A stretch of DNA of 64,000 bases, taken from NCBI GenBank assembly GCA_022843605.1, contig JALHNI010000009.1, positions 11,704 to 75,703 on the forward strand, written 5' to 3'. Under the pieces are notes generated by a model, which was given only the letters and a program-made list of their open reading frames with translations, had not been told where the DNA came from and searched no databases. The translations under genes were made by a program, and so were the position numbers. The first letter of the stretch is position 1, and each line of letters opens with the position of its first letter. The stretch comes from Bryobacter sp. GTDB taxonomy: Bacteria > Acidobacteriota > Terriglobia > Bryobacterales > Bryobacteraceae. This document shows positions 26,152 to 52,100 of this stretch, piece by piece.

Positions 26152-26229
26152 TCCTGCGCGGCTGTTGTATTCTAAGGGAAATCGGAGAACATTCCGGTGG
26201 TCTCGACCGAATTTTGAATTGGGGCTTCC

Positions 26230-27918
<1,689 letters not shown>

Positions 27919-30779: not shown

Positions 30780-32174
<1,395 letters not shown>

Positions 32175-32178
32175 TTGC

Positions 32179-35220
<3,042 letters not shown>

Positions 35221-35301: not shown

Positions 35302-36096
35302 ATGAAACCGATATTGATATTGCTCGCTGGTGTCCCCCTGCTGTTGCAGGCCGGGAAGATTGCTGACGACGAGCGCATCCTGCTCTTGCGCGGCCTGATG
35401 TCGGAATTCGGTACGGCGAAGATCGTCGTGCCTCGTTCAAAGAAACCGCTACCCATCCTTGCCCAGCAGGGGCCCGATCGGCAGAAATGGGCCGAAAGTC
35501 TGCAGGAGGAAGGCCCCTGCGCCCGCACGGGTGACCTGGTGCAGATCACCAAGGTCGAAATCGATGACGACAAGGTCACGCTCCAACTCAATGGCGGCTA
35601 CAAGGGTGGCCGGAAATGGTACGAGAACGTACAGGTTGGTGGCGGCATGGGCAACAACACCCGTACCGCGCCGATCGGTGGCGGCAATCGTCGAAGCGGC
35701 CCCGCCGGCACTTCCGTGGTGCTGCACTTCCCCAAGGAATTCGAAAGCATCAGCGTTGCGGACGTAAAGAAGTGGCTCGCTCCGGCCATCGATTTCGAAA
35801 AACAGCGCAGCGCCACCGAAAACTACATCGAGCAGATGAAGCCCGAAGTACAGGCGGCCATCAAGGAGCAGCGGGCGCTGGAGGGGATGGACAAGGAGCA
35901 GGTGATTATGGCCATGGGCAAGCCGCGTGGCAAGTCACGGGAAACCAAAGATGGCCTGGAGCTTGAAGACTGGGTTTACGGGCAGGCCCCCGGAAAAATC
36001 ACTTTCGTCACGTTCGATGGTGACAAAGTCGTGAAAATCAAAGAAGCTTTCGCCGGTTTGGGCGGCGCTACCGGACCGACACTGAAGGCCCAATAG
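35302..36096 (+). CDS. Hypothetical secreted protein with BamE/SmpA-OmlA-like C-terminal segment
   Basis: Signal-like 'MKPILILLAGVPLLLQA' and C-terminal 'GMDKEQVIMAMGKP...LEDWVYGQAPGKITFVTFDGDKVVKIK'. No firm family assignment. Confidence 0.45.
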   Translation: MKPILILLAGVPLLLQAGKIADDERILLLRGLMSEFGTAKIVVPRSKKPLPILAQQGPDRQKWAESLQEEGPCARTGDLVQITKVEIDDDKVTLQLNGGYKGGRKWYENVQVGGGMGNNTRTAPIGGGNRRSGPAGTSVVLHFPKEFESISVADVKKWLAPAIDFEKQRSATENYIEQMKPEVQAAIKEQRALEGMDKEQVIMAMGKPRGKSRETKDGLELEDWVYGQAPGKITFVTFDGDKVVKIKEAFAGLGGATGPTLKAQ

Positions 36097-36126: not shown

Positions 36127-38631
36127 GTGACTGAAGCAGTAGCGCCGACAGCCTGGACGTACTCCCCCGTCCTCGGACATTACGACGAGGTCATCGACCC
36201 GCGCGGCCGCCCGCGAAAACACTGGCGTCGCCTCGCGAACACCATGACGCGCTTGGGCCCAGGCCAGTTTGCGCGCCGCTGGCAGCATGGACGGCAGCTG
36301 ATTCAGGCGAACGGCATCACGTTCAACGTCTACGGTGATCCGCTAGGGCAGGAACGTCCCTGGCCGGTTGACCCGATTCCCTTGGTGCTCTGCGGCACCG
36401 AGTGGAACGCGATCGAAGCAGCCGTGTTGCAACGTGCCATGCTCTTTAACCTGATGCTGGCCGACATCTATGGCCCGCAACGGCTTTTGAGCGACGGATC
36501 GCTGCCGCCGGAACTCATCTTCCACAACCCCAGTTTTCTGCGGCCTTGCCACGGGCTTACCGTGCCGCAAGGCGTCTTTCTGCACCACTACGCGGCGGAT
36601 CTTGGCCGGTCACCCGACGGCCAGTGGTGGGTGGTCTCGGACCGTACTCAGACGCCCTCCGGCCTCGGCTACGCACTGGAGAACCGGATGGTGAGCGCGC
36701 AGATTCTGCCAGAGGCCTTCAAGCGCTCGCACGTCCGGCCGCTCAATCGCTACTTCCATGAGTACCGGCAAGGCCTACTCGAGCTTACGCGGACCAAGCG
36801 GGAGAATCCTCGCGTCGTCCTGCTCACGCCTGGCCCGTTCAATGAAGCCTATTTCGAGCACGCATATCTTGCCAAGCACTTGGGCTATACCCTCGTCGAA
36901 GGCGCCGATCTGGTGGTGCGCGATGAACGAGTTTTCCTGAAGACGCTCGGCGGCCTGGTTCCGGTCGACATCATCTTGCGCCGGCAGGACGATACCTATT
37001 GCGATCCGCTATCATTCCGCGGCGATTCGGTGCTGGGCGTCCCTGGCCTGCTCGCCGCCGTTCGGGCCGGAAACGTCGTCGTCGCCAACGCCCTGGGCAG
37101 TGGCGTGCTGGAAACTCCCGCGATCTCCGGTTTCCTGCCTGCGATGTGCCGCACCCGCCTGGGTGAGAGACTCAAGATGCCTTCGCTGGCCGCTTGGTGG
37201 TGTGGAGAGGAAAAGGCGCGCCAGTTTGTCCTGGCGAATCTAGAAAAGCTCGTCATTAAACCGGCATTTCCGCGCTTTGGCCTGCATCCCATCTTCGGCG
37301 CCGGGCTCTCGGCTTCCGAGCGTGACGACCTGCGCCGGCGCATCGAAGCCGATCCCTCGCAGTATGTCGCGCAGGAACAGATGGCGCTCTCCACGGCCCC
37401 CATTTTTTCTGACCATGGCCTGGAAGCCCGTCATGTCGTGCTACGTGTCTTCGCCGTCTGGTCCGGCGACGGTTACGTGGTGATGCCCGGTGGGCTCACC
37501 CGCATCTCCACCTCTCAGGATTCGCTGGTCGTCTCCATGCAGCAGGGTGGCGGTAGCAAAGACTCCTGGGTGCTCGCTGACCACGATGAAGAGCCGCAGG
37601 CTCCTGAAGCCACCCGTCATCCCGTCGACATCACACGAACGCCGGACCTCCCGAGCCGTGTCGCCGACAACATGTTCTGGCTAGGGCGCTACCTGGAACG
37701 CGTCGAGTCGCTTGTCCGTTTGGCGCGCGCTTTGTTGCCTGCCCTTTCCAGCGAAGGAGACCTCGGCGGCGGCCTCTCCATTGAGTCCAGCGTCGAACTG
37801 CTGATCGGCTACGAGTATCTGCCGGAAGAGATGCGCGATGCTCCGGTGCTGGAGCAGCGCCGCTGGTTGGAACGCGTGCTTCGCTGGATCGTCTTCGACA
37901 CGGAGCGCGTCAACGCGCTGAGTTGGAACATCAACCAGGTTCGCCGCTCCGCCCGCAGTTTGAAGGAACGCCTCTCGAGTGACGCCTGGCGTCTGCTGAA
38001 TCGGCTCGACCAGGAGTTTCCCTCGGCTATACTCTCCGGTGAAGCTCATCTGCTCAATCAGGTGAACACCCTTGATCGGGCGATCCTTACGCTGGCCTCT
38101 TTCTCCGGCTTGATGATGGAGAACATGACCCGCAGCCAAGGATGGCGTTTCCTGGATATCGGCCGGCGGTTGGAGCGCGCCCTCCAATTGGTGGAGCTGT
38201 TGCGCCATGGCTTGGCTGGGGTGATCGTCGATGAGCAGGCTGCGCTGGAACTACTGCTGCAGATCGCCGACAGCGCTATCACCTATCGCACCCGCTACTA
38301 CACCAGCATGCAAGCCGACCTGGTGCTGGATCTGCTGCTCGTCGACGAAGCTAACCCCCGGTCAGTGGGCTTTCAATTGCAGACCCTGGCTTCGCACATG
38401 CGCAAACTGCCCGGGCAGGACCAATCCGCGCGCCTGCCGGACGAACAGCAATTCATCGTCAAAGCGCTAACGGCGGCTCGCCTAGCCAAGACGAGCGAAC
38501 TCGCCGCTGATCGCGATCAGCTTCGCGTCTTCCTCGACGAACTCCGCCAGGACCTCTTCAATGCTTCGAACGCCCTCAGCAGCCGCTACCTCAGTCACTC
38601 CATGTCCACCCGTCTGCTGGCCTCCGCATGA
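36127..38631 (+). CDS. Fusion of circularly permuted type-2 ATP-grasp domain and alpha-E domain
   Basis: GTG start. The N-terminal ~500 aa end in 'YVVMPGGLTRIS', a hallmark of the circularly permuted ATP-grasp family. The C-terminal part begins 'NMFWLGRYLERVESLVRLAR', a hallmark of the alpha-E/DUF403 family. Confidence 0.8.
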   Translation: MTEAVAPTAWTYSPVLGHYDEVIDPRGRPRKHWRRLANTMTRLGPGQFARRWQHGRQLIQANGITFNVYGDPLGQERPWPVDPIPLVLCGTEWNAIEAAVLQRAMLFNLMLADIYGPQRLLSDGSLPPELIFHNPSFLRPCHGLTVPQGVFLHHYAADLGRSPDGQWWVVSDRTQTPSGLGYALENRMVSAQILPEAFKRSHVRPLNRYFHEYRQGLLELTRTKRENPRVVLLTPGPFNEAYFEHAYLAKHLGYTLVEGADLVVRDERVFLKTLGGLVPVDIILRRQDDTYCDPLSFRGDSVLGVPGLLAAVRAGNVVVANALGSGVLETPAISGFLPAMCRTRLGERLKMPSLAAWWCGEEKARQFVLANLEKLVIKPAFPRFGLHPIFGAGLSASERDDLRRRIEADPSQYVAQEQMALSTAPIFSDHGLEARHVVLRVFAVWSGDGYVVMPGGLTRISTSQDSLVVSMQQGGGSKDSWVLADHDEEPQAPEATRHPVDITRTPDLPSRVADNMFWLGRYLERVESLVRLARALLPALSSEGDLGGGLSIESSVELLIGYEYLPEEMRDAPVLEQRRWLERVLRWIVFDTERVNALSWNINQVRRSARSLKERLSSDAWRLLNRLDQEFPSAILSGEAHLLNQVNTLDRAILTLASFSGLMMENMTRSQGWRFLDIGRRLERALQLVELLRHGLAGVIVDEQAALELLLQIADSAITYRTRYYTSMQADLVLDLLLVDEANPRSVGFQLQTLASHMRKLPGQDQSARLPDEQQFIVKALTAARLAKTSELAADRDQLRVFLDELRQDLFNASNALSSRYLSHSMSTRLLASA

Positions 38632-39536
38632 TCTATCAGGTTCGTCATCTCACGCGCTATTCTTACGCGCTCCCCGTCACCACCACGCACAGTGAACTGC
38701 GCCTGACGCCGCGCGAACTGCCTTGGCAGAACCTCGTGCGCAGTTCCATCACGCTGGACCCGCAGTTTGAGACCATGCGCAGCTTTCGCGACTACTTCGG
38801 CAATAGTGTCCGGTACTGCTGCGTCCTCACGCCGCACCATGAACTCGCCATCACCGCGGAAAGCATCGTGGAGGTGCAGGAGACGAATCCCCTGATTCCC
38901 GCCGCGACCCTGCCGTGGGAACAGGTGCGCAGGGGCCTCCGCGCTTTTGACGATCCCGTAGCCTTGCAAGCTTTCGAACTGGCCGCCGAGTCGCGCTACA
39001 TTCGCTGGACGCCGGCAATCGCCGACTACGCGCGCAGCAGCTTCACTCCCCAGCGGCCGATCCTTGAGGCTGCCGCGGAACTATCCACCCGCGTCCATCG
39101 GGACTTCAAGTACACCCCGGACTCCACGGACATCGATACGTCCGTCGACGATGTCTTTCGGAGCCGCCGCGGCGTCTGCCAGGACTTCGCCCATTTGCTG
39201 ATTGCCATGCTGCGGTCACAGGGTCTTGCTGCCCGATACGTCAGCGGCTATCTGCGCAGCGGCGGCATCGGCGCCGAGGCTTCTCACGCCTGGGTAGGTG
39301 TCTTCGTGCCCGGTAACGGCTGGGTGGACCTTGACCCGACGAACGACGTCGTTGTCGCCACCAGCCACGTCACGCTCGCTTGGGGCCGCGACTACGGCGA
39401 TGTAACGCCGGTGAAAGGCATCAATATGGGTGGCGGCGACCACACCATCGAAGTTGAGGTTCGCGTGGAGCCACTAGCCAGCATTCCCGTGCCGGTCGAG
39501 GTCCGTCGCGTTGCCGGCCGTCGCTGGGACCGTTAG
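38628..39536 (+). CDS. Transglutaminase-family protein (Bact_transglu_N + transglutaminase core)
   Basis: Contains 'MIYQVRHLTRYSYALPV' and the catalytic-Cys segment 'RRGVCQDFAHLLIAMLRSQGLAARYVSGY', then 'SHAWVGVFVPGNGWVDLDPTN'. ATGA overlap with the upstream gene. Confidence 0.85.
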   Translation: MIYQVRHLTRYSYALPVTTTHSELRLTPRELPWQNLVRSSITLDPQFETMRSFRDYFGNSVRYCCVLTPHHELAITAESIVEVQETNPLIPAATLPWEQVRRGLRAFDDPVALQAFELAAESRYIRWTPAIADYARSSFTPQRPILEAAAELSTRVHRDFKYTPDSTDIDTSVDDVFRSRRGVCQDFAHLLIAMLRSQGLAARYVSGYLRSGGIGAEASHAWVGVFVPGNGWVDLDPTNDVVVATSHVTLAWGRDYGDVTPVKGINMGGGDHTIEVEVRVEPLASIPVPVEVRRVAGRRWDR

Positions 39537-40033
39537 CAGCTGAGGGCCGGGTCGTCGTGAATTGACCGCGGGCATCTCTGCGCGGAGCAGCGCAAGCCGT
39601 GCCTGGCGAAGGGCGACCCCACGTGCTAGTCCAAGACGAAAGAGGTCAAACGACGCCCGGTGGTCAATGCTGAACACCGGGTTCAGTTTGAGCCTTGATG
39701 GTCAGGGCTAGCCGTCACCGGCTGCTCAACCCGTCACAACCTGCGGGTGCGGCCCTGGCGAGTCACTCGCACCGTCACATAAGTGCAGATGCCGTCCCGA
39801 ACACGGACTAAATCAACGTCTGCAGAAGGCGCCATTCAAGGAGAAACCCAACTGGTGGATTCTTCCGAAAAATGTAACACCCAAAGGCGTGCAATCGCAT
39901 CTGGCTATCATCATTGGCTTTGGCCATCTCTCGTCAGAGTTACGAGTTCCACTATCCGTCTGCGCGGAGCGGGGCCACTGTATTTGGCCACGTGCGTGCT
40001 CCATCGTGATCGAGGAGTGACGATCAAAAATAC

Positions 40034-40573
40034 ATGAACCAACTAAAGGAACTACTCGTCGACGAATTGTGTGACCTTCTCCATGCGGAAGGCCAGTTGT
40101 TAACTGCCCTGCCGAAGATGGCTGAGGCGGCACATCATCCGAAACTCAGGGAAGCTTTTCTGAATCACCTGCAGCAAACAGAGGGCCAGGTTGAGCGACT
40201 GAAATCCGCCTTTGAACTTCTTGGCGAAAAGCCACAACCGAAGCCGTGCAAGGCGATGGCGGGGTTGGTTGCTGAGGGCGCCGATACCATCAAGGATGGA
40301 GCGGACAAATCCAACATTGCCGCCGACCTCGGGCTGATAGCCGCCGCGCAGCGAGCGGAACACTACGAGATCTCAGCGTACGGTACAGCCCGAAGCCTTG
40401 CCCGGCAAATCGGAGAACCGAAGGTGGCCACGCTGCTGGCCCAGACACTTGGCGAAGAAGAAAGTGCAGACTTCCTTTTGACCGAACTGAGCAAGCCGTT
40501 GATGCAGCAGGCTACCTCCGAAGAGAATTCGTCGGAAAGCAAAATTACAAAAGCGAGAAAGCAAACGGCTTGA
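40034..40573 (+). CDS. DUF892 (YciE/YciF-type ferritin-like) stress protein
   Basis: Contains 'LKELLVDELCDLLHAEGQLLTALPKMAEAAHHPKLREAFLNHLQQTEGQVERL' and 'AAAQRAEHYEISAYGT'. Confidence 0.8.
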   Translation: MNQLKELLVDELCDLLHAEGQLLTALPKMAEAAHHPKLREAFLNHLQQTEGQVERLKSAFELLGEKPQPKPCKAMAGLVAEGADTIKDGADKSNIAADLGLIAAAQRAEHYEISAYGTARSLARQIGEPKVATLLAQTLGEEESADFLLTELSKPLMQQATSEENSSESKITKARKQTA

Positions 40574-40704
40574 GTCGAGATAAGGCAAGACACTCCGATG
40601 TCTCGCCTCCACCACGAAGCAACCCAGGCTATAGACATCTTGCCAGTGGCGCGGCGCATAGTTGTCATGGTCAGCAAGAATCAAAAAGAGAAAAGGATTT
40701 AGTA

Positions 40705-41112
40705 ATGAAGAACAATTTATTGAAGGCATTGAGAGGCCAAGCTTTAGCCGTTGCGATGATATTTGGTGCTGTGGCTTCCACCGGCTACGGACAAGACCCA
40801 GATAAGGCTGCTCCGAAAGCGGATAACACGAAGGTGAATAAACGTGATCGGAATGCTGGGGAAGCCACGGCGGATCAGCAGAAGGTGAACGAAACGGACC
40901 GGGACCTGACCCAAAGAATTCGGCAATCAGTGGTTGCAGATAAGTCCCTGTCCACTTATGCCCACAACATTAAGATCATCAGCCAAAATGGTGTTGTGAC
41001 TTTGAAGGGCCCAGTCAATTCAGAAACCGAAAAGAAGTCTATCGTGGCCATGGCTGTTAAAGCGGCGGGCGACGCAAGCAAAGTTACCGATCAGATCTCT
41101 GTAAAGCGGTAA
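40705..41112 (+). CDS. Secreted BON-domain (OsmY-like) protein
   Basis: Signal peptide 'ALAVAMIFGAVASTGYGQ' and BON-like 'IKIISQNGVVTLKGPVNSETEKKSIVAMAVKAAGDASKVTDQISV'. Start moved to ATG 40705. Confidence 0.7.
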   Translation: MKNNLLKALRGQALAVAMIFGAVASTGYGQDPDKAAPKADNTKVNKRDRNAGEATADQQKVNETDRDLTQRIRQSVVADKSLSTYAHNIKIISQNGVVTLKGPVNSETEKKSIVAMAVKAAGDASKVTDQISVKR

Positions 41113-41142
41113 AAGTCAGACGCGAAAGAAAAGGAATTACAA

Positions 41143-41709
41143 ATGGAAAGCAAAAACACAGCAGTCTTCGGCATTTATAAGAGCAGCGCTCAAGCAGAGA
41201 GCGCCGTGGACCGGCTCACCGTGGCGGGATTCTCTAACAACGACATCTCGGTGCTACTGCCCGACGCGCAAAGTTCGAAAGATTTTGCGCACGAAAAGAA
41301 CACCAAGGCGCCCGAGGGGGCAACGACCGGTGTGGCTACCGGCGGCTTGCTAGGTGGGACTCTTGGCCTGTTGGCAGGCATCGGAGCACTCGCCATCCCT
41401 GGCATCGGCCCCTTCATTGCGGCAGGGCCGATCATGGGGGCGCTCGCGGGCCTCGGTGTCGGCGGTGCCGTAGGGGGATTGGTCGGTGCGCTGGTCGGCA
41501 TGGGCATCCCGGAGTATGAGGCCAAGCGTTACGAAGGCCGAGTCAAGGAAGGTGGCGTGTTGCTCTCCGTGCACTGCGACACCTCCGAAGAAGTGTCGAG
41601 GGCGGAGGACCTGTTAGAACAAACAGGTGCCGAAGACATCTCTTCCACCGGGGAAGTGGCTGTGAGCGCCAGCGACTCGCGGCCCGAAAGGTCGTCGAGG
41701 CTGATCTAG
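41143..41709 (+). CDS. Stress-type membrane protein: GSP17M/DUF-like N-terminal domain + glycine-zipper segment
   Basis: Contains 'AVFGIYKSSAQAESAVDRLTVAGFSNNDISVLLPD', then a Gly-zipper 'GGLLGGTLGLLAGIGALAIPGIGPFIAAGPIMGALAGLGVGGAVGGLVGALVGMG'. Confidence 0.5.
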   Translation: MESKNTAVFGIYKSSAQAESAVDRLTVAGFSNNDISVLLPDAQSSKDFAHEKNTKAPEGATTGVATGGLLGGTLGLLAGIGALAIPGIGPFIAAGPIMGALAGLGVGGAVGGLVGALVGMGIPEYEAKRYEGRVKEGGVLLSVHCDTSEEVSRAEDLLEQTGAEDISSTGEVAVSASDSRPERSSRLI

Positions 41710-41720
41710 CCGCACACCCG

Positions 41721-41769
41721 GAGTTCGGACGGCGCGATTGCAAGCACTGCGGTCGCGCCGTTCGAACTC
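41721..41769 (+). terminator. Strong hairpin (16-bp stem with one G-U pair, 17-nt loop) 12 nt after the stress-operon stop
   Basis: GAGTTCGGACGGCGCG (41721-41736) pairs with CGCGCCGTTCGAACTC (41754-41769). There is no T-tract, so intrinsic-terminator status is uncertain. Confidence 0.45.
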
Positions 41770-41925
41770 GTGACATGCCTGGGGCCGATTGCGGCGACGC
41801 ATTGACCCGAGCAGGGGGGATCATCGACGACCCCTGCAGGTCGGTCACGCCCCAGGACGTCGCCATACCCTCCCTCAAAAGTTTCGATTTTCCCTCGCCC
41901 AACCCCCCGTGCTATCGTCAGCCTC

Positions 41926-44900
41926 ATGAGTATCCGGGTAGCCTTGCACCATGAAACGACCTACGCCTATGATCGACTGGTGACACTTGGCCCCCAGGTG
42001 ATCCGCCTGCGGCCCGCCCCTCACTGTCGCACCCCGATTCTCAGCTATTCCCTCCGCATCGAGCCGGCCGAGCACTTCCTTAACTGGCAGCAGGACCCTC
42101 AAAGCAACTACTTGGCCCGGTTTGTGTGCCCGCACCTCACCCAGCATTTCAAAGTCGAAGTTGACCTCATCGCGGACATGACGGTGATCAATCCCTTCGA
42201 TTTCTTCCTGGAAGAGTATGCCCAGAAGTTTCCCTTCGCCTACGAACCTGCTCTGGCCCACGAACTCGCTCCCTTTCTCGCCCACCCCGAACCCGGCCCG
42301 CTCCTCACCCAGTGGATCGCCTCTGTCGACCGCTCCCCCATGCCGACCAATGACTTCCTGGTCGGCCTTAATCAACGTCTCCAGCGCGAAATCAGTTACT
42401 TGATCCGCATGGAGCCTGGCGTCCAAACGCCGGAATTCACGCTGAATTCCCGCAGCGGCTCCTGCCGCGACACCGGTTGGTTGCTCGTTCAGGCGCTGCG
42501 CAATCTCGGCCTTGCCGCCCGCTTTGTCTCCGGCTACCTCATCCAATTGCGCGCCGACATCAAAGCGCTCGATGGCCCCTCGGGACCCGCTGAAGACTTC
42601 ACCGATTTGCACGCCTGGGCCGAGGTCTATCTTCCCGGCGCCGGTTGGATTGGGCTCGACCCGACTTCCGGCCTCTTCGCCGGGGAAGGGCACATTCCTT
42701 TGGCCGCCAGTCCTGAGCCCACTTCGGCGGCACCAGTTAGCGGTCTCGTCGATCCGTGCGAGGTCAGCTTCCAGCACCACATGTCGGTGCGGCGGATTCA
42801 TGAAACGCCCCGCGTGACTCTTCCCTATACCGACGATCAATGGCAGGCCATCGAACAACTCGGTGACCGGATCGACGAGGATCTCCGTCGGCAGGATGTC
42901 CGCCTCACTATGGGTGGCGAGCCCACCTTCGTCTCCATCGACGACATGGACGGCGAGGAGTGGAATACCGCCGCTTTGGGTGACGAAAAGCTCAAACGAG
43001 GCAGTGACCTGCTGCGCCGCATCCACGCTCGCTGGGGCAAGGGCGGCTTTCTCCACATCGGTCAAGGCAAGTGGTATCCAGGTGAGAGCCTGCCGCGCTG
43101 GGCGATGACCTGCTACTGGCGCACCGACGGACTCACCATCTGGCGCGACCCCTCGCTACTTGCCGACCCCGATATCAATTATGGCTTTGGCGATGCCGAG
43201 GCTGAGCGATTTTCCGACGCGCTCGCCGAGCGTCTCCGCATCGATACGGACTACGTCATTGCCGCTTATGAGGATCCTCTGGAGTACGTCCACAAGGAAC
43301 GCAAACTTCCCGTCAACGTGGACCCTCGCGACAACAAGCTCGATAACCCCGAGGACCGTGAGCGCCTGCGCCGTGCCTTCGAACGGGGGCTTGGCAATCC
43401 GTCCGGTTTCGTTCTCCCCATTCAGCGGGTATGGCATACGGATGGACCTGCTTGGCAAAGCGGCCTGTGGATGCTCCGCGCGCGCCACCTTTACCTGATC
43501 CCAGGAGATTCGCCGGTGGGGCTGCGTTTGCCTCTTCCCAGCCTGCCCTGGGCGGCGACCAAGCCGCATTATTGGACGCTCGATCCCTTTGCGGAGCATC
43601 CGCCTTTCGCCAATCAACCGGCTGCCCGTGCAACCGAAACGCAGCGCACCCAGTCCGTTTCGGCGCCTGAGGAGATGCGGCAGAACGTGAACGCGCAGTC
43701 GCTCGGCGAAGAGGTGCCTGAGTTCGGCGAGTCCGCCGAATGGGTGGTCCGCACGGCGATGGCAGTCGAGCCGCGCAACGGCCGGTTGCATGTTTTCATG
43801 CCGCCTTTGCGCTCGGCCGATGACTATCTCGAGCTTCTCGCCGCGGTCGAAGAAACCGCCGCCGCGACCCGTCTGCCAGTGATCATCGAAGGCTACACGC
43901 CGCCCCACGATCATCGTCTACAACTGATGAAGGTCACCCCGGATCCTGGCGTGATTGAGGTCAACGTCCACCCGGCTCGTACTTGGCGCGAACTCGTCGA
44001 CAACACCACCGCCCTCTATGAGGATGCTCATCAGTCGCGTCTGGGCACGGAGAAGTTCCTGCTCGATGGCCGACATAGCGGCACCGGTGGGGGCAACCAC
44101 ATCGTCCTCGGAGGTCCCACTGCTCCGGATAGCCCGTTCCTTCGTCGCCCCGACCTGCTGAAGAGCCTGATTGCCTACTGGCTCAATCATCCATCGCTCA
44201 GCTATCTCTTTTCCGGCCTCTTTATCGGCCCCACCAGTCAGGCGCCGCGGGTGGACGAAACCCGCGCCGATGCGATCTATGAGCTTGAGATCGCCTTCGG
44301 TCTGGTGCCGGATCCATCCTCGGGCCAGCACGTCCCGCCGTGGCTGGTCGACCGCATCTTCCGCAACCTTCTGGTTGACGTCACCGGCAATACCCATCGC
44401 GCCGAGTTCTGTATAGACAAGCTCTACTCGCCGGACTCTTCCACCGGCCGCCTTGGACTCCTCGAACTCCGGGCGTTCGAAATGCCGCCCCATGCTCGCA
44501 TGAGCCTTACGCAGCAGTTGCTCATCCGTGCACTGATTGCCCATTTTTGGAGGAATCCTTACCGCCAGAAACCCATTCATTGGGGCACCCGCTTGCATGA
44601 TCAGTTTCTGCTGCCCCACTACGTGCGTCGCGACTTCGCCGAGGTCCTGGACGATCTGCGCTCCACTGGCTACTCCCTCGATCCTGCCTGGTTCGACGCC
44701 CACTTCGAGTTCCGTTTTCCCTTCATCGGCGAGGTCCGTTACGATGGCATTCACCTTGAAGTTCGCCAGGCGATTGAGCCCTGGTACGTTCTCGGTGAGG
44801 AAGGCGCTGCGGGCGGAACTGCCCGCTATGTCGATTCGTCGGTTGAGCGGGTCCAGGTGAAAGTCAGTGGACTGGTCGGTGAACGTTACCTCATCACCTG

Positions 44901-45252
44901 CAATGGCCGCCGGCTGCCGCTCCAGAATACCGGTGTGCACAATGAGTTCGTCGCCGGGTTGCGCTACCGGGCCTGGCAGCCGCCACGTTGCCTGCACCCC
45001 ACGATTCCCGTGCATTCGCCCCTCGTCTTCGACGTTCTCGATAGCCAGAATGGCCGTTCGATCGGAGGGTGCACCTATCACGTGTCGCATCCAGGGGGGC
45101 GCACCTATGACACCTTTCCGGTGAACGGCAATGAAGCTCAGGCGCGTCGCGTGGGACGCTTCTTTGCCTTCGGCCACACGCCCGGTCCGATGCCGATTCC
45201 GGCGCTGGAGCCCAATCCGCAATTCCCCTGCACGCTCGACTTGAGGCGATAG
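41926..45252 (+). CDS. Large transglutaminase-family protein (Bact_transglu_N + transglutaminase core + DUF2126-type C-terminal region)
   Basis: Contains '[16 protein letters not shown]', catalytic-Cys segment '[29 protein letters not shown]' and '[22 protein letters not shown]', followed by a long conserved-looking C-terminus of about 800 aa. Confidence 0.8.
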   Translation: [1108 protein letters not shown]

Positions 45253-45266
45253 CCGCCGGCTTGGGG

Positions 45267-47816
45267 TCAGGAGCCGTAACGGCGCCAGAGGCGCTGAATC
45301 CAATCCGCGCGCCAAGTGCCGGAGGGTGGTGCTTTTGCCATTTCCTCGTGCAGTGGCGTCAGCAGCTTGCGTGCTTCTTCCCGCCGGCCATTCGCGGCGA
45401 GGCCGGCGGCGAGGGCGGCGTCGGCGTAGGAACGCATCCAATGCTTAGAGGTCAGAATCGGATTGAGGATCTCCTGAGCGGCGCGGGCGGGCGGCAGAGC
45501 TTCGGAGGCGCGTCCGTTTTCAATGAGCGCCGCAGCCAGGACGATGCGGGCGAAGCCGCGCTCAATGCGGGGCAGGGGCTTCAGCCGGTCGAGCCCGGCG
45601 ACGACCTCGGTTGCCAGTTGCAAGGCCTCGACGGGTTTGTTTTGTTCCAGGCGGAGGTTGGCGTACTTGAGAGAGGCGCTTAAGTACGGTAGCCGTTCCC
45701 TGCCGGTATTGCGCGTGTGCATCTCCACCACTTGGGCGAGGGTGGCGGCGGCTTCGTTGAGACGGTTTTCACCCTGCAGCACAATAGCCAGGTTCGAGAG
45801 GGAACTGGCGAGTTCGCCGCTGTTCGGACCGAGGAATTTACGATATTGATCGTGAGCCTCCCGGTAGATCTGTTCGGCCTTCGCATAGCGGCGTAGCGTC
45901 GCGTGGGTATTGGCTAGATTGTTCAGGGAGCGGGCGATCACGACGTGGCCTTCGGGATAGAGCTGGCGCGAGAAGTCAATCGACTGAGTGAAGTAGCGGG
46001 CGGCATCTTCGAACCGGCCCTGGCGGAAATAGAGGCCGCCGAGTTCGTCCAGGGTGACGGCGACGGTGGGGTTGCGCTTTGAGCCGGACGACCGAGCCAG
46101 GGCGAGACCAGAGAGCAGAGCTTTTTCCGCTCCCGCGAAGTCGTTTGTGTTTTTTAGGGCACGCCCGTGGCTGCGCAGGAGGTGGGCCTGTTCAAGTGGC
46201 CCGAGCTTGGCGGTTAAGCCTTTGGCCACGGCGGCTCCACAGAGAGGCGCGGCCGGGGCGAACTTGGCGGCCTGAAAGAGGGTGAGGCAGTGCTGTTCCA
46301 GTGCGGAGGCCTCGGCGGCTGGGTCAGCGGGACGGATGCTCCGCGCGATCGCAACGGAGCGAATGGCGGCGGCTTCGGCGGGAGCGTAGCGTCCGAGTTG
46401 GGAGAGGGCTGAGGAGAGTCCGGCAAGGGAGTGCGCCAGCCGGCGCGAAGGCGCGCCCGCGGAGTCGGAATCCACGATGGACTGGTAAAGCGCGAGAGCC
46501 TTTTCGTAAAGACCGAGTCCGGCATAGGCGTCGGCCATGGTTTCCGTGAGGTCGAGCCGCGTGGCGGGATCGAGGGCGGCGGACTGAATCGATTGGGCGC
46601 CCTGGTCAAGAAGTTCGCGGGTGGTGAGCCGATTGCCCTGGTTCACCTCGGGGTCAGAGGCCTGAAAGAGGCCCCGCAAAAAGGTGGCGACGGCTGTAGC
46701 GCGCTCGCGTTCACGGGAAATTTCGCGATTCTTGAAAAGTGTCAGCGCGACGGTGGAGAGCAAGAGTAACAGCAGCAGACCGGCGGAGGCAAACGCGACG
46801 GCATGACGGCGAACCAGCTTCGACAGGACGTACTGGAAGTTGCCCTGCCGGGCTTCGACGGGTAGGCCTTGCCGAAGACGCTCAATGTCGGCGGCTAAGT
46901 CGGCGGCGGAGGGGTAGCGATCCCTGGCGTCCTCGCGCGTCGCGCGGGCGATGATGGCGGTGAGATCGGCGGAGTGCGTGGCGCCGGCCAGTTTGGCCAG
47001 CAGCAGACCCAGGGAGTAGACGTCAGTGGCGGTGGTGAGCGTTTCGCCGCGCAGTTGTTCGGGGCTGGCAAAGGCCGGCGTAGCAGCGCGAAAGACGGTG
47101 GACGTGCGCTCGGACGCGGCGTCCAGCCCCGACGGATCGAGCGACTTGGCGATGCCGAAGTCGAGGAGTTTGGGATGCCCGGCGGCCGTAACCAGGATGT
47201 TCGAGGGCTTCAGGTCGCGATGGACGACCAGGCGCTGGTGGGCGTAGTGCACGGCCAGGGCCACTTCGGCGAACAGGGCAAGGCGCTTGTCCAAGGGCAG
47301 CGGCTGCGCGTGGGTGAGCAGGTCCTGACCCTCAATGTACTCAAGGACCAAATACGGTAGACCGTCCGGCGTGACGCCGCCGTCGAGTAATTTGCAGATA
47401 TTGCGGTGTTCGAGTAGTGCGACGATCTGGCGTTCGGCTTCGAAGCGCAGCCGAATCTGGCGAGCCATCGCCTCGGTCAACAACGGGGGCAGGGCGATCA
47501 CCTTGATGGCGACACGCTGCTCATAGCCGGAGATACGCTCGCCTCGGTAGACAATGCTCATTCCGCCTTGGCCAATCTCTTCCATCAGACGCCACACTCC
47601 GATGGTGGACGAAAGCGCTGGTTTCCGGGTGGCGAGCGCACTGGTTTCGAGGTAGCCGGGGGCCGAATCAGAGGCGGACAGAAGGCTCGAGACCTCGGCG
47701 CGGACGGCCGGGTCAGCTTCGGGGTGATTTAGCCAAGCCAATTGCCGTTCTTCGGGAGGAAGGGCGAAAAGCGAATCCAGAATGCCGCTGGCCCTGGACC
47801 AGAGCTCATCGTTCAT
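45267..47816 (-). CDS. Ser/Thr protein kinase with one TM segment and C-terminal TPR array
   Basis: Contains 'IGQGGMSIVYRGE', 'VAIKVI', 'HRDLKPSNILV' and 'DFGIAK', then a TM stretch 'AFASAGLLLLLLLSTVALTLF' and multiple TPR-like repeats. Confidence 0.85.
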   Translation of the reverse strand: MNDELWSRASGILDSLFALPPEERQLAWLNHPEADPAVRAEVSSLLSASDSAPGYLETSALATRKPALSSTIGVWRLMEEIGQGGMSIVYRGERISGYEQRVAIKVIALPPLLTEAMARQIRLRFEAERQIVALLEHRNICKLLDGGVTPDGLPYLVLEYIEGQDLLTHAQPLPLDKRLALFAEVALAVHYAHQRLVVHRDLKPSNILVTAAGHPKLLDFGIAKSLDPSGLDAASERTSTVFRAATPAFASPEQLRGETLTTATDVYSLGLLLAKLAGATHSADLTAIIARATREDARDRYPSAADLAADIERLRQGLPVEARQGNFQYVLSKLVRRHAVAFASAGLLLLLLLSTVALTLFKNREISRERERATAVATFLRGLFQASDPEVNQGNRLTTRELLDQGAQSIQSAALDPATRLDLTETMADAYAGLGLYEKALALYQSIVDSDSAGAPSRRLAHSLAGLSSALSQLGRYAPAEAAAIRSVAIARSIRPADPAAEASALEQHCLTLFQAAKFAPAAPLCGAAVAKGLTAKLGPLEQAHLLRSHGRALKNTNDFAGAEKALLSGLALARSSGSKRNPTVAVTLDELGGLYFRQGRFEDAARYFTQSIDFSRQLYPEGHVVIARSLNNLANTHATLRRYAKAEQIYREAHDQYRKFLGPNSGELASSLSNLAIVLQGENRLNEAAATLAQVVEMHTRNTGRERLPYLSASLKYANLRLEQNKPVEALQLATEVVAGLDRLKPLPRIERGFARIVLAAALIENGRASEALPPARAAQEILNPILTSKHWMRSYADAALAAGLAANGRREEARKLLTPLHEEMAKAPPSGTWRADWIQRLWRRYGS

Positions 47817-48450
47817 GCGAGACCTGCGGAGGAGTGTTCAATTCGCGGTAGAGCCAGGCGCGTGCGATGAGCCAGTCGCGCTGCACGGTGGCGGGACTCA
47901 CGGCGAGATGGGCGGCGATTTCGTCCCCGCTCATGCCCCCGAAGAAGCGCAGTTCCACCACCTGGGCGCGGCGGCTGTCGAAGGATGCGAGGCGGGTGAG
48001 TGCGTCGTCGAGGTCGGAATAGTGCGAGAGATCCGCGCTCAGGGGGAGTCCTTCGTCGAGCGAGAAGACGGCATTCGGCGTGCGCTTTTCCGCCTTTTGT
48101 CTACGAGCATGATCCACCAGGATGCGTCGCATCGCCTGGGCGGCGACCGCGAAAAAGTGTCCGCGGCTCTGCCATTCAACGCCGTTTTGGCCGAGCAGTC
48201 GCAGATAGGCTTCATGGACCAAGGCTGTCCCCTGCAGGGTATGGCCGGGCTTTTCCTGCGAAAGGTAGCCCTGCGCGAGGCGACGCAACTCGTTGTAAAG
48301 AAGAGGAAAAAGATCAGAAAAAGCCGATTGGTCCCCTGCGCGCCAGCGGATGAGAAGTTGTGTGATCTCGGGCTTCGAAGCCGCCGGATCACAAATGTTT
48401 TCTTCGTTGAGCAAATTTCTCTCCGCGCTGCGCTGAATGGACAAACCCAT
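47806..48450 (-). CDS. ECF-type sigma factor (PF07638 / Sig-70_X6-like)
   Basis: 'ITQLLIRWRAGDQSAFSDLFPLLYNELRRLAQGYLSQEKPGHTLQGTALVHEAYLRL' is the characteristic N-terminus of this ECF group. It has a C-terminal helix-turn-helix 'GGMSGDEIAAHLAVSPATVQRDW' and an 11-nt overlap with the kinase gene. Confidence 0.85.
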   Translation of the reverse strand: MGLSIQRSAERNLLNEENICDPAASKPEITQLLIRWRAGDQSAFSDLFPLLYNELRRLAQGYLSQEKPGHTLQGTALVHEAYLRLLGQNGVEWQSRGHFFAVAAQAMRRILVDHARRQKAEKRTPNAVFSLDEGLPLSADLSHYSDLDDALTRLASFDSRRAQVVELRFFGGMSGDEIAAHLAVSPATVQRDWLIARAWLYRELNTPPQVSHER

Positions 48451-49171
48451 GACTCAACGTCTCATCTTACTTCTCGTTCTGGGCGCGATGCGGTGGAGCG
48501 CGGCTGGCGCAACACTGACCTTAACGTCCCAGGAACTTCACCTGTACATCGACCAGGGAGCACCAGGTTTTTATAGTCCCAGCAGCGTCGAGTACTTCAC
48601 GAATCTCGATGGCGACAACTTTGGCGACTATGGTTGGCTCATCACCAACAATACAGCGAACCCTTGGGCAAACATTTCGCTCCTCTTTTTCCTGGATGCG
48701 GAATGGGACCTCGGCACCAATCTGGTTTCGAACGAGTATGGGGAGTTTTTGAGTATTGGGCTCGCGAATGGTGCGCCTCCAGGAGCTTTGGCGCCACAAG
48801 GTTGGGAGATTGACGAGCCGGGCTACGTTTTTGGCGATATCTACACGAACGTCAGTTTCAACGGCATTTTGGACAATCAGAATGCGGTTCCTTCCAACAT
48901 GCCGGACGATGTTTCGCTCGCGTTCCTCTGGGCGACGACCAATCTGGGGCCGGGCGACAGTCTGCGTTTGACGATCCTGCATCAAAGCGCGGCAGTGGAT
49001 GGGATCGGGCACTTCGATCCGGATTCGCAGGCTGTGTTCTACGTCAACGGCTACCTGGAGGTGATCTCGAACGCCGCTCCGGGAACCGGGGTGCCTGAAC
49101 CGGGCATGGGATGGGCATTGGGAGCCGGGTTGGCGGCAATTCTCTGGGTCCGCCGTAAGGGAGGGAAGTAA
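48437..49171 (+). CDS. PEP-CTERM sorting-domain protein
   Basis: Signal peptide and C-terminal 'VPEPGMGWALGAGLAAILWVRRKGGK' (PEP motif, TM helix, basic tail). An alternative start lies at 48449. Confidence 0.75.
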   Translation: MDKPMTQRLILLLVLGAMRWSAAGATLTLTSQELHLYIDQGAPGFYSPSSVEYFTNLDGDNFGDYGWLITNNTANPWANISLLFFLDAEWDLGTNLVSNEYGEFLSIGLANGAPPGALAPQGWEIDEPGYVFGDIYTNVSFNGILDNQNAVPSNMPDDVSLAFLWATTNLGPGDSLRLTILHQSAAVDGIGHFDPDSQAVFYVNGYLEVISNAAPGTGVPEPGMGWALGAGLAAILWVRRKGGK

Positions 49172-49173
49172 CT

Positions 49174-52100
49174 ATGAAGCGAGTCCTGATCGTTACGGCG
49201 TCGTTACTGATGAGTTGGAGCGTCTTTGAGGGACAAGGCTCCCCGGACTTGACGGTGGAGTCGATTTCGACCACTTCGCTGACGACGAACACGCAGACGC
49301 TGGTGGTGGGCGGGTCAATTCAGCCGGTGATCCGCAACCTGGGCGGCGGGGCGAGCGCCGCGTTCACGGTGCAGGTCTTCGAGGACCGGAATGCGAACCA
49401 GGTTTACGATGCCGGCACAGATGTGAACCTGGGGAGTGCCGCCGTGCCCTCCCTGTCGGCGGGCGCATCGGCGTCGCCGGCGATTCCGGTAAGCGGTACA
49501 TTGCTTTTCGCTGGCAACATCCTATACGTGCGTGCCGATTCCGCCAATGTTGTGACGGAATCGAATGAGGGCAACAATACCCGGCACACGGGGCAAGCCT
49601 ATACGTTTCAATTCAGCGGCGGACTGAACCCGGTGGTTCTTTGGGATCGCGCGTCCTTCACGCTGGCGCCCACCAGCCGCCGCGTGACGAATCCCATCGC
49701 GGTTGGCGACCTGGACGGCGATGGATTTCCCGAGGTCGTAATCACCACCTTCGTGACGAGCATCACCGCCGACGGCACCTTGCGGGTGCTGGATGGCCGC
49801 GATGGCAGCGAGAAGATGACCATTGTCGATCCCGCACTAGCCTTGCGCCCCACAGCCGGAATTGCTCTCGGCGACATTGACCTGGACGGACGCGCCGAGA
49901 TCGTGACGATGGACGAGTCCTGTCAGGTGATCGTTTTCGAGCACGACGGTACGCTCAAGTGGCGTGGGGCGGTCTCCGTGGCGACAGCTGCGCGATGCTA
50001 TGGTTCTCCCACACTCGCCGACCTGAATCGCGATGGCTCGCCGGAGATCGTGGCCGGACGCCGTGTCTATTCAAATACGGGCACCCTGCTATGGACGGGG
50101 ACCGCGCAGAATGGCGGACCGTGGGGGCCGCTGTCCGTGGCGGCCGACATCGACGGCAGCGGTGACCTTGAAGTGGTGGCTGGCCCCACGGCTTACGACT
50201 CGAACGGCAACATCCGCTACAATCGCACGTCGACCTATTCGGAAGGCTATCCGGCGGTGGCGAATCTGGATGCGGACCCGCAGGCCGAGATCATCTTCAA
50301 GCCGCGCTCGGGCAATGCGTTGGTGGTGCTGGAACACGATGGCACCACGAAGTGGGAGGCGCCGTGGAATGAGACTGGAGGCGGTCCGCCGACCGTGGGC
50401 AACTTCGACAGCGACCCCGAGCCCGAGATCGGCGTGGCCAGCAGTGTGAACTTTCGCGTGTATGAGGCCAACGGCACGCTGAAGTGGAGCAACACGATCA
50501 TTGACAGCAGTTCGGGGATTACCAGTGCGACGCTCTTTGACTTCGACAACGACGGCATCACGGAGGTCGTTTTCGCGGATCAGGAGTATATCTACATCTG
50601 GCGAGGAACGGACGGCGCCGAACTGTTTCGTGCGGCGCGGGTCAGCAATACCGCCATCGACATGCCGGTGGTGGCGGACGTGGACGGCGATGGACATGCG
50701 GACATCATCGCGCCTCGCAGCGGTATCTCTGCCGGCGAGCAAGGCATCGTGGTGTACCGTGGCGCGGGCCTGAACTGGGCCAACACGCGGCGGCTATGGA
50801 ATCAATCGGCCTATTCGATTACGAACGTGCTGGATGATCTGCGCATTCCGCAGACCTTCACGCCGAACTGGCTGGTGCCGGGCTTGAACAACTTCCGGCT
50901 GAATACGTTTCTGCCGGGTCAGGGAGTCGCGCCGAACTCGGTGGGCGATTTGACGATCAGCTATCTCCGCCGCGACGATCGGGACTTTCCCGGCAAGACG
51001 GTATTGACCGCGCGCATCGGTAACGGGGGCGCTGTGGTGATTCCGCCAGGCGGTGTTCGATTCACGGCGGGCGCCGGTGGACCCGTCATTTGTACGACGC
51101 AGGGCAACGGTCTGCTGCAGCCGGGACAGTTTCAGGATGTCTCTTGCGACTACCTGAGTCCGGTGCCGGGCGCGCAGAACATCGTGGCGCAGGTCGATTT
51201 CGCCAACGCGATTCCGGAAGGCGACGAGAACAACAACACGGCGGGAGCGAATCTGGTGATCGGCCTGGGGCCGGCCCAGAGCGTGAACGAACTGACGGTG
51301 CGGTCCCGCGATGCGGCGATCGACGTGAAGTGGACGCCGGTGCCGGGCGCGGTGAGCTACAACATCTACCGGCGGGCGGGAACCGCGCCGTACGCGCTGC
51401 ATCGCGCGGCCTACGTGAACGCGTTGGGCGCCTTTGCGGATACGGGGCTGACGAACAATACGGTTTATTGGTACAACGTGCGTTGGCTGAATGCGACCGG
51501 CGTTGAGTCGCCGCTGGGTACGGAAGCCAGCGCCACGCCGATTCCCCGCACGCAGCGTGGCGATACGGCGCCGACCATCACCAGTCTGCCGGTGACGCAG
51601 GGCCGCACCGGGCTGCTCTACCGATATCAGTTGATCGCCTCCGATCCTGACGCCGGCGATACCAAGACGTTCGAACTGAGCGCCCCTCCGACCGGCATGA
51701 CGGTGGGCGCCGCTTCGGGCTTGATCGAGTGGACGCCGCTGCCTGGACAGGCCGGCGCCCATCGCATCGCGGCCTCCGTGCGCGATTCGCGCAACCGGGT
51801 GACCAGCCAGACCTTCGAAATCTTTGTCGAGACGCAGGTGGTTAACAGTCCGCCGGTGATTCTGAGCACTGCCTTGACGTTCGCCATGGTGGGCAAGCCT
51901 TATGCCTATACGGTGCGTGCCAGCGATCCCGATGCCGGCGACCTACTGAGCTTCACGCGCCTCGCCGGCCCGGCCGGCCTGAGCGTGCATTCCTCCACCG
52001 GGGCCGTCATCTGGCTCCCGGCGATCAACCAACTCGGCAGCCACGCGGTGAGCGTGCGCGTGCAGGATCTAGCCGGCTTGAGCCAGACCCAGACGTATCA

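Follow-up and report, generated by a model that had tools for sequence, protein, structure and literature searches.

An intact transglutaminase-DUF2126/ATP-grasp-Alpha-E/transglutaminase cluster in Bryobacter, split by a stress-gene insertion, is a candidate for glutathione-like amide synthesis

The closest described systems to the gene cluster treated here are the Mycobacterium tuberculosis proteins Rv2566, Rv2567 and Rv2569c and the Anbu operon of Pseudomonas and Yersinia. The gene set is attributed to Iyer et al. (2009), going by the citations of that study in PMC5666114 and PMC6376114. Rv2566 has been described as a transglutaminase plus carboxylate-amine ligase, and Rv2566-type proteins were placed in the carboxylate-amine ligase superfamily with GCS1/GCS2, glutamine synthetase and PafA; glutathione-like peptide synthesis was argued over protein tagging, as no Pup-like open reading frame (ORF) lies nearby (Iyer et al. 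2008, PMC2588565). The biochemistry that we located in the literature is limited to three results: an ATP-grasp protein of Yersinia releases orthophosphate from ATP (PMC6376114); Rv2567, picked as an ATP-binding candidate, was negative together with Rv2411c for gamma-aminobutyrate (GABA)-trehalose synthesis (bioRxiv 10.64898/2026.04.15.718621); and Rv2569c, which has a cysteine-protease-type conserved domain, has been reported as a serine protease cleaving E-cadherin (PMC11081392). In P. putida, nitrogen limitation induces the unfused sister operon (PP_2685-2688) 11-37-fold, with NtrBC as the probable regulator (PMC7801951, PMC8050072). Here we describe a related cluster of three genes, A, B and C, in a 64,000-nucleotide stretch of Bryobacter sp. 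(Acidobacteriota; GenBank assembly GCA_022843605.1, contig JALHNI010000009.1, positions 11,704 to 75,703), hereafter the window.

By its domains, motifs and linkage, the locus is a member of the predicted Rv2566-Rv2569c-type system. Gene A encodes an ATP-grasp ligase fused to an Alpha-E domain, gene B a small transglutaminase, and gene C a transglutaminase-DUF2126 protein. Our preferred reading, to which we assign a probability of roughly 0.55, is that this is an intact, expressed-looking copy of a still unsolved system that would carry out a glutathione-like, two-step, ribosome-independent synthesis of an amide product, with thiol enzymes trimming or transferring that product.

For gene A, Pfam matches cover CP_ATPgrasp_2 (E = 1.5e-153, residues 85-460, model positions 1-373 of 374) and Alpha-E (E = 1.6e-70, residues 508-822, model positions 1-294 of 294), with the peptides YVVMPGGLTRIS at A450 and NMFWLGRYLERVESLVRLAR at A515. 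Its best sequence match in the PDB is 3N6X (E = 1.2e-100), a structural-genomics entry. The same entry leads the fold search (1.4e-28), followed by homoglutathione synthetase 3KAL (6.6e-09), human glutathione synthetase 8FBZ (3.2e-08) and the ligase Cp1B (9CJN, 8.3e-07). Among circularly permuted ATP-grasp enzymes the classic ones are glutathione and homoglutathione synthetases, whose sequence identity to gene A is just 10-13%; no Pfam match to glutathione or glutathionylspermidine synthetase families was found for gene A at E <= 0.01, and no NCBIfam model matches gene A, B or C. An alignment of 98 ATP-grasp domains, drawn from 80 genomes and reaching down to 37% identity, took in 78 fused and 19 unfused forms; gene A retains all 44 of the columns conserved in at least 97% of the domains. 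Within the Alpha-E region, which is all-helical in the predicted structure, the two 'ER' motifs (E524-R525 and E683-R684) are invariant across 19 homologues. Gene A is a predicted carboxylate-amine ligase. Cp1B belongs to the fungal pathway to E-64; as a sign of protease-inhibitor synthesis this match was set aside, being distant (13% identity).

The fusion of ATP-grasp and Alpha-E, which a preliminary description of the locus had singled out as particular to it, is real and is shared widely. Gene A has 7982 homologues at E <= 1e-20, and all 120 of the matches listed are fused, at ~795-868 aa, so that fusion is the norm for this subtype. The 80 genome loci compared below hold 97 ATP-grasp ORFs, and 78 of these are likewise joined to Alpha-E.

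Gene B carries a transglutaminase-like papain-fold core (Transglut_core, E = 1.3e-24) behind a Bact_transglu_N domain (E = 4.3e-25). Its GVCQDFAH segment lies at B182, and alignment to the catalytic residues of two transglutaminase-like proteins of solved structure, 3ISR and TgpA (6G49), locates a Cys184/His220/Asp236 triad. The N-terminal part of gene C is built similarly, with Bact_transglu_N (E = 3.6e-23), Transglut_core (E = 4.6e-15), a fold match to 3ISR (3.9e-11), GSCRDTGW at C178 and a Cys180/His229/Asp245 triad that is invariant across 25 homologues. The remainder of gene C matches DUF2126 over the entire model (E = 0, 1337.6 bits, positions 1-826 of 826). Members of the superfamily of carboxylate-amine ligases share the motifs Ex[EH], [HD]x[NH] and Ex[RK]xxD as well as arginine fingers (PMC2588565), and within a predicted strand of gene C there is an E847-x-R849-x-x-E852, invariant among homologues, that resembles the strand-6 motif Ex[RK]xxD. 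Following the published superfamily assignment, we regard DUF2126 as a predicted second ligase, of the glutamine-synthetase type. It shows no internal duplication, and a search of the fetched loci for GlnA or GCS2 genes, from which to build a comparison profile, found none.

Gene C is widespread and very strongly conserved, with 3037 clusters of relatives at 50% identity (E <= 1e-30) and 58-73% identity across phyla. In PLSDB, 289 plasmid records match, mostly megaplasmids and chromids of rhizobia, Ralstonia, Burkholderia and Azospirillum, without usable annotation. Some DUF2126 relatives (e.g. P0302, P0307, P0318) are only ~700-770 aa long, their best stretch aligning to query residues ~608-1108, which suggests variant architectures, possibly lacking the N-terminal transglutaminase region.

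The preliminary description, made from the DNA letters with a list of ORFs, holds on these structural points. The positions and lengths of the three ORFs, the ATGA coupling of A to B and the quoted motifs are as it gave them, and the hidden Markov models that it named (CP_ATPgrasp_2, Alpha-E, Bact_transglu_N, Transglut_core and DUF2126) all match strongly, with scores far beyond chance. The Cys-His-Asp triads that it proposed aligning are intact in B and C, and its claim of a complete copy of a widespread system agrees with the full domains and with the numbers of A and C homologues. Its label for gene C, a giant DUF2126 transglutaminase, under-describes the protein, of which DUF2126 would be a second ligase.

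How might these proteins work together? We propose that three cytoplasmic proteins build, and then trim or transfer, an amide-linked product made from common metabolites, following the enzyme logic of glutathione metabolism. DUF2126 of gene C, with its predicted glutamine-synthetase/gamma-glutamylcysteine-ligase fold, would activate a carboxylate by forming its acyl-phosphate and couple this to an amine; the ATP-grasp domain of gene A would then form a second ATP-dependent amide bond, with the Alpha-E domain holding the substrate or regulating the reaction; and the papain-fold Cys-His-Asp domains of gene B and of the N-terminus of gene C would hydrolyse or transpeptidate the product. The order of the reactions, the gamma-glutamyl-type chemistry and a small-molecule product are all inferred parts of this scheme. 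If the DUF2126 assignment is accepted, the cluster holds one ligase from each superfamily used in glutathione synthesis together with two papain-fold domains, and it is this pairing of ligase superfamilies, along with the thiol enzymes, that leads us to favour a glutathione-type reading. In glutathionylspermidine synthetase/amidase, a thiol enzyme of this kind is the amidase that reverses the ligation; in phytochelatin synthase, one transfers gamma-Glu-Cys. Consistent with a cytoplasmic location, A, B and C have no signal peptide. The induction of the sister operon by nitrogen limitation fits a role in amino-acid or nitrogen metabolism.

Several observations weigh against a glutathione-like pathway. 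The AlphaFold model of DUF2126 is of low confidence (predicted local distance difference test score, pLDDT, 61.9), and its best glutamine-synthetase match by Foldseek is 5DM3 at E = 0.18 and a TM-score of 0.27. We could not confidently locate the superfamily's Ex[EH] and [HD]x[NH] motifs in gene C, and neither a PDB sequence-profile search nor a Pfam scan of three fragments yielded anything beyond DUF2126 itself. The fold search found no PDB structural relative of the Alpha-E domain above noise, and the role we give it is a guess. A scan of the window for sigma-54 sites (TGGCAC-N5-TTGCW, up to 2 mismatches) gave 32 matches where 31 are expected, none of them in the intergenic DNA that lies upstream of gene A or gene C, so that the Pseudomonas NtrC/RpoN link to nitrogen is not directly transferable. 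In the literature we found no paper giving a substrate, product or function for any member of the system, as the preliminary description had also held when it ascribed the gene set to the 2009 study. Finally, the conservation of gene C across phyla would also fit a conserved protein substrate.

That last point leads to the main rival, protein tagging or editing in the manner of pupylation or of Anbu, in which the ligases would add an amino acid or short peptide to side chains on target proteins and the transglutaminase-like domains would remove or cross-link it. A tagging role was proposed for the sister ATP-grasp/Alpha-E/transglutaminase/Anbu operon, according to the passages in PMC6376114 and PMC5666114 that cite Iyer et al. 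(2009), and PafA and Dop belong to the superfamily predicted for DUF2126 (PMC2588565). The high conservation of gene C and the lack of linked transporter or small-molecule pathway genes point the same way. However, clustering of all ORFs of 90 aa or more in the 80 loci revealed no linked Pup-like small ORF, proteasome or Anbu gene, nor did the parts of the window that were scanned. No gene recurs after B in the 80 loci where Anbu would be expected, the gene that follows B in the window encodes a DUF892 protein, and none of the window ORFs scanned matches a proteasome family. The lack of a Pup-like ORF was used to argue against protein conjugation for the Rv2566 family (Iyer et al. 2008, PMC2588565), and in Yersinia the proteins of the operon formed no complexes detected by pull-down (PMC6376114). 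We consider tagging unlikely on balance.

Returning to glutathione-like synthesis, a wider and more tentative proposal is that C-A-B makes a cytoplasmic amide-linked compound across many phyla, either a glutathione-like peptide or a gamma-glutamyl conjugate. Two ligases of different folds would build this compound, which the two papain-fold enzymes would polymerise, transfer or recycle and which might serve as a nitrogen or stress reserve. We rate this as somewhat less likely than not.

A second alternative takes the reported activity of Rv2569c at face value and treats B, and by extension the cluster, as secreted extracellular proteases. The activity of Rv2569c was blocked by AEBSF and PMSF, which supports that claim; neither E-64 nor N-ethylmaleimide affected it (PMC11081392), and this speaks against the fold's own cysteine as its source. 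In our locus, the absence of signal peptides, the papain-fold Cys-His-Asp triad of B in place of a serine-protease fold, the coupling of B to a cytoplasmic ATP-dependent ligase in 71/71 loci and the host, a soil acidobacterium, all speak against secretion. A serine-protease activity of Rv2569c does not fit the fold, and we consider an extracellular protease role very improbable.

To place the window among other genomes, we fetched 80 loci from one-genome-per-species contigs and located homologues of every window gene by tblastn. These loci span Acidobacteriota, Planctomycetota, Verrucomicrobiota, Pseudomonadota, Myxococcota, Bacteroidota and other phyla, and 71 of them could be tested for layout. 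A gene B homologue directly follows gene A in all 71. Gene C lies directly upstream of gene A on the same strand, with a gap of 18-364 bp, in 49; upstream with 1.1-5.1 kb of other genes between in 9; downstream in 1; and nowhere within the flank in 12. It is thus within 5.1 kb of gene A on the same strand in 59/71 loci, and the C-to-A and A-to-B gaps are mostly below 200 bp. From these counts, the canonical order is C-A-B, in which A-B is an invariant core and gene C a frequent but separable partner. The three genes, whose normal contiguity the preliminary description had left to be checked, are therefore contiguous as far as A and B are concerned; for C this is common and not universal. No further neighbour recurs in the 80 loci (ORFs of at least 90 aa clustered), whether Anbu, transporter, regulator or precursor-like ORF.

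In 18-19 of the 80 loci the fused gene has company: upstream of gene C stands a further set in which ATP-grasp and Alpha-E (plus transglutaminase) are unfused. The unfused ATP-grasp gene is 37-43% identical to A and lies within 10 kb of it, mostly upstream of C (L021, L022, L030-L032, L035-L037, L039, L041, L051, L060, L061, L068, L075-L078 and L080). In several of these loci (e.g. L031, L036, L039, L076) an Alpha-E and/or small transglutaminase gene of its own accompanies it, so that two paralogous systems lie side by side.

The window departs from the canonical order: its genes run A, B, a 2.3-kb insert and C, and this order is the real oddity of the locus. In the closest relative (L001, GCA_044226365.1) the order is A-B-C, with 48 bp between B and C and no insert. 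In a second relative, GCA_019752335.1, A-B lie on one contig (L002) and gene C on another (L168), so the partners are retained in the genome but unlinked; there the DUF2126 gene (L168 8001-11315, JAIEMJ010000007.1) stands between rseP-like M50 peptidase and FKBP genes. Another close gene C homologue (P0121) has no gene A upstream. The linkage of A-B to C has loosened in the window's clade.

The insert holds three genes encoding stress-type proteins of the DUF892, BON and YflT families (Table 1). The split by foreign-looking genes described earlier is borne out by the uninterrupted L001 and by two independent Logan assemblies, L166 and L167, which span the insert with both junctions at 94-97% DNA identity, and the insert is therefore not an assembly artefact. 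GC content at third codon positions (GC3) is 0.72-0.77 in A, B and C, above the 0.54-0.71 of the insert genes, and overall GC content is 0.525 at 40-41 kb against ~0.61 elsewhere. The BON and YflT genes have a common start context, AGAAAAGGA, seen as AGAAAAGGAnTTAnnAATG at both starts. A hairpin just after the YflT stop, with no T-run behind it, is probably the transcriptional end of the inserted module. The short region preceding gene C, kept in L001 (…TTTCGATTT…TGCTATCGTCAGC…ATG, three-way alignment), is probably gene C's own start or promoter region. Scanning 35.1-45.6 kb for sigma-70 promoters and terminators gave matches at chance level, Rfam matched nothing in the whole window, including the ~500-bp insert leader, and the insert borders showed no flanking direct repeats, integrase or tRNA to account for its arrival.

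Might the insertion be functional, with the DUF892, BON and YflT genes recruited for a general-stress or desiccation role in a new composite operon? The insert genes lie on the same strand between B and C, the arrangement is retained in two further assemblies, and the sister operon is induced by a stress, nitrogen starvation, in Pseudomonas (PMC7801951). The comparative evidence runs the other way. Insert genes are found in 0/84 loci carrying gene A, and among 80 metagenome DUF892 homologues (47-79% identity) A, B or C is adjacent in 0/80; in 8 of those 80, DUF892 is followed at 1-2 kb by a YflT-like gene, marking a stress module in its own right. Other unrelated genes separate C from A in 9 of the 59 loci with C near A, and these are miscellaneous, e.g. 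citrate-synthase-like genes, PIN toxins and secreted proteins. The insert moreover has its own leader, start contexts and closing hairpin, and gene C sits on a different contig from A-B in a close relative. We conclude that the insert genes are unrelated cargo and not part of the amidoligase system, and rate a composite operon as improbable. A non-canonical order with a stress-gene insertion is a peculiarity of a kind seen in ~1/7 loci.

Interruption could also mark a cluster in decay. Its order is non-canonical and broken, C is unlinked from A-B in a relative, and the exact gene A sequence is absent from recorded gene calls. Against this, the three ORFs are full length with Pfam coverage from end to end, no frameshifts were seen, and all catalytic and conserved residues are kept. 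Relative to L001 (87% amino-acid identity), the ratios of non-synonymous to synonymous substitution rates (dN/dS) are 0.068 (A), 0.108 (B) and 0.066 (C), values that point to purifying selection and are approximate, with dS saturated at ~1.3. Full-length ORFs, kept triads, ER motifs and ATP-grasp columns, and dN/dS of ~0.07-0.11 thus show the cluster to be intact, complete and not decayed. We give next to no weight to loss of function; the refuting outcomes named in the preliminary description, failing HMM matches or lost catalytic and ATP-grasp residues, did not occur, with 44/44 columns kept.

Immediately upstream of gene A is a gene for a secreted-looking 264-aa protein, which has no Pfam, NCBIfam or PADLOC match. 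It occurs in the same position at 81-88% identity in L001 and L002, a 264-aa gene is called there in L166 and L167, and it is absent from all 80 more distant loci; on that distribution it is probably lineage-specific synteny and not a system component. Further upstream, the divergent PSCyt1/PSCyt2/PSD1 and DUF1501 pair, of a type common in Planctomycetes and Acidobacteria, is syntenic in L001 and L002. The names of homologues put the organism in the Bryobacteraceae, and the PSCyt/DUF1501 and PEP-CTERM genes that flank the cluster agree with this. The dnaG-rpoD genes, upstream of the cluster in the window, are downstream and inverted in L001 (20627-22505, minus strand), indicating local inversion or rearrangement between these close genomes (L001 87% identical). 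Beyond gene C, L001 differs at the position of a convergent Ser/Thr protein kinase gene, and the region that follows looks like a polymorphic-toxin or surface-protein locus (47782-56349). A mechanically listed ORF near the start of the window (2942-4216) is probably not a real gene as listed, since a tRNA-Met lies inside it.

Table 1. Features of the window, with positions counted from its first nucleotide
Feature	Position	Strand	Description
tRNA-Met (CAT)	3727-3803	+	within listed ORF 2942-4216
dnaG-rpoD	24388-27918	+	upstream of cluster
PSCyt1/PSCyt2/PSD1 and DUF1501 pair	30780-35220	-	1013 aa and 464 aa; divergent from cluster
Secreted-looking protein	35302-36096	+	264 aa; N-terminal hydrophobic leader; ends 30 bp before gene A
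Gene A	36127-38631	+	834 aa; GTG start; AAGGA five bases 5' of start
Gene A, circularly permuted ATP-grasp ligase domain	residues ~85-460		
Gene A, fused Alpha-E helical domain	residues ~508-822		
Gene B	38628-39536	+	302 aa; 4-bp overlap with gene A (ATGA)
Insert relative to L001	~39537-41860		~2.3 kb; both junctions aligned to L001; ~60 bp conserved sequence left upstream of C
Insert leader	39537-40033		~500 bp, non-coding; 5' part of insert
DUF892 (YciE/YciF-like, ferritin-like) stress protein	40034-40573	+	179 aa; Pfam 3.8e-49; GC3 0.61
Start context, BON gene	40689-40715		
BON-domain (OsmY-like) secreted protein	40706-41112	+	135 aa (gene call as in L166); Pfam 2.2e-11; GC3 0.54
Start context, YflT gene	41127-41153		
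YflT-like general-stress protein	41143-41709	+	188 aa; glycine-zipper segment; Pfam 6.6e-10; GC3 0.71
Inverted repeat/hairpin	41721-41769	+	22-nt arms, 86% complementary, 5-nt loop; just after YflT stop (repeat search)
Short region 5' of gene C	41861-41925	+	kept in L001
Gene C	41926-45252	+	1108 aa; 2.4 kb downstream of gene B
Ser/Thr protein kinase	45267-47816	-	849 aa; C-terminal TPR array; convergent with gene C
Two small ORFs	47782-49171		before 2391-aa protein; one with PEP-CTERM motif
Giant protein	49174-56349	+	2391 aa; CARDB, FG-GAP, He_PIG/Big_9, DUF6531, RHS repeats

The locus gives a further intact example of a known, widespread system, ordinary apart from its gene order and insert. 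Among bacterial enzyme clusters that have no reaction assigned to them, the gene set is one of the more widespread, carried by soil bacteria, plant symbionts and pathogens, and M. tuberculosis; solving it would give core bacterial physiology either a new ribosome-independent route to a peptide or conjugate or a system that tags proteins. The value of this locus is chiefly comparative, in that the A-B pair is invariant and the DUF2126 gene frequent but separable, and a comparison of the Bryobacteraceae variants, with C adjacent, split off by an insert or on another contig, could help to identify the product. Since C and A-B are often parted by unrelated genes, an interruption should not be taken to mark a new composite system.

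Set beside known systems, the cluster has partial counterparts in several. PADLOC returned no anti-phage defence match for A, B, C or the upstream 264-aa protein. Pupylation employs PafA and Dop, of the ligase superfamily predicted for DUF2126 (PMC2588565), paired with a bond-reversing enzyme; here no Pup-like ORF or proteasome is linked in the 80 loci (ORFs of at least 90 aa), and the reversing enzyme would be of papain fold and not a PafA paralogue. The glutathione pathway, with GshA and an ATP-grasp glutathione synthetase, has one ligase from each of the same two superfamilies, the DUF2126 assignment being predicted. Among characterised proteins, the glutathione and homoglutathione synthetases of eukaryotes match the structure of A best, in contrast to their 10-13% identity and the lack of a Pfam family match, and Alpha-E has no counterpart among the glutathione enzymes. 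The comparison with GshA, glutathionylspermidine synthetase/amidase and phytochelatin synthase draws on established knowledge, with papain-fold enzymes hydrolysing or transferring the product. The locus is not an Anbu operon, a pupylation system or a known defence system, nor, by sequence, a member of the glutathione/glutathionylspermidine synthetase families.

Two systems stand nearer. Rv2566, Rv2567 and Rv2569c of M. tuberculosis have the same three architectures and are all cytoplasmic, a likeness drawn from published descriptions rather than sequence alignment; the preliminary description had drawn it too, and the account of Rv2566 as a transglutaminase plus carboxylate-amine ligase (PMC2588565) supports it. 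Relative to Rv2566-type clusters, the window differs in order, A-B-[insert]-C where 49/71 loci have C-A-B. The Anbu operon of P. putida (PP_2685-2688) and Y. bercovieri contains three of the same families in the same order, ligase, Alpha-E and transglutaminase, with separate ATP-grasp and Alpha-E proteins, an ATP-grasp ~37-43% identical to A, and Anbu following. The window instead has a single 834-aa fusion, no Anbu and an added DUF2126 ligase gene: its cluster is a sister of the Anbu operon, without Anbu.

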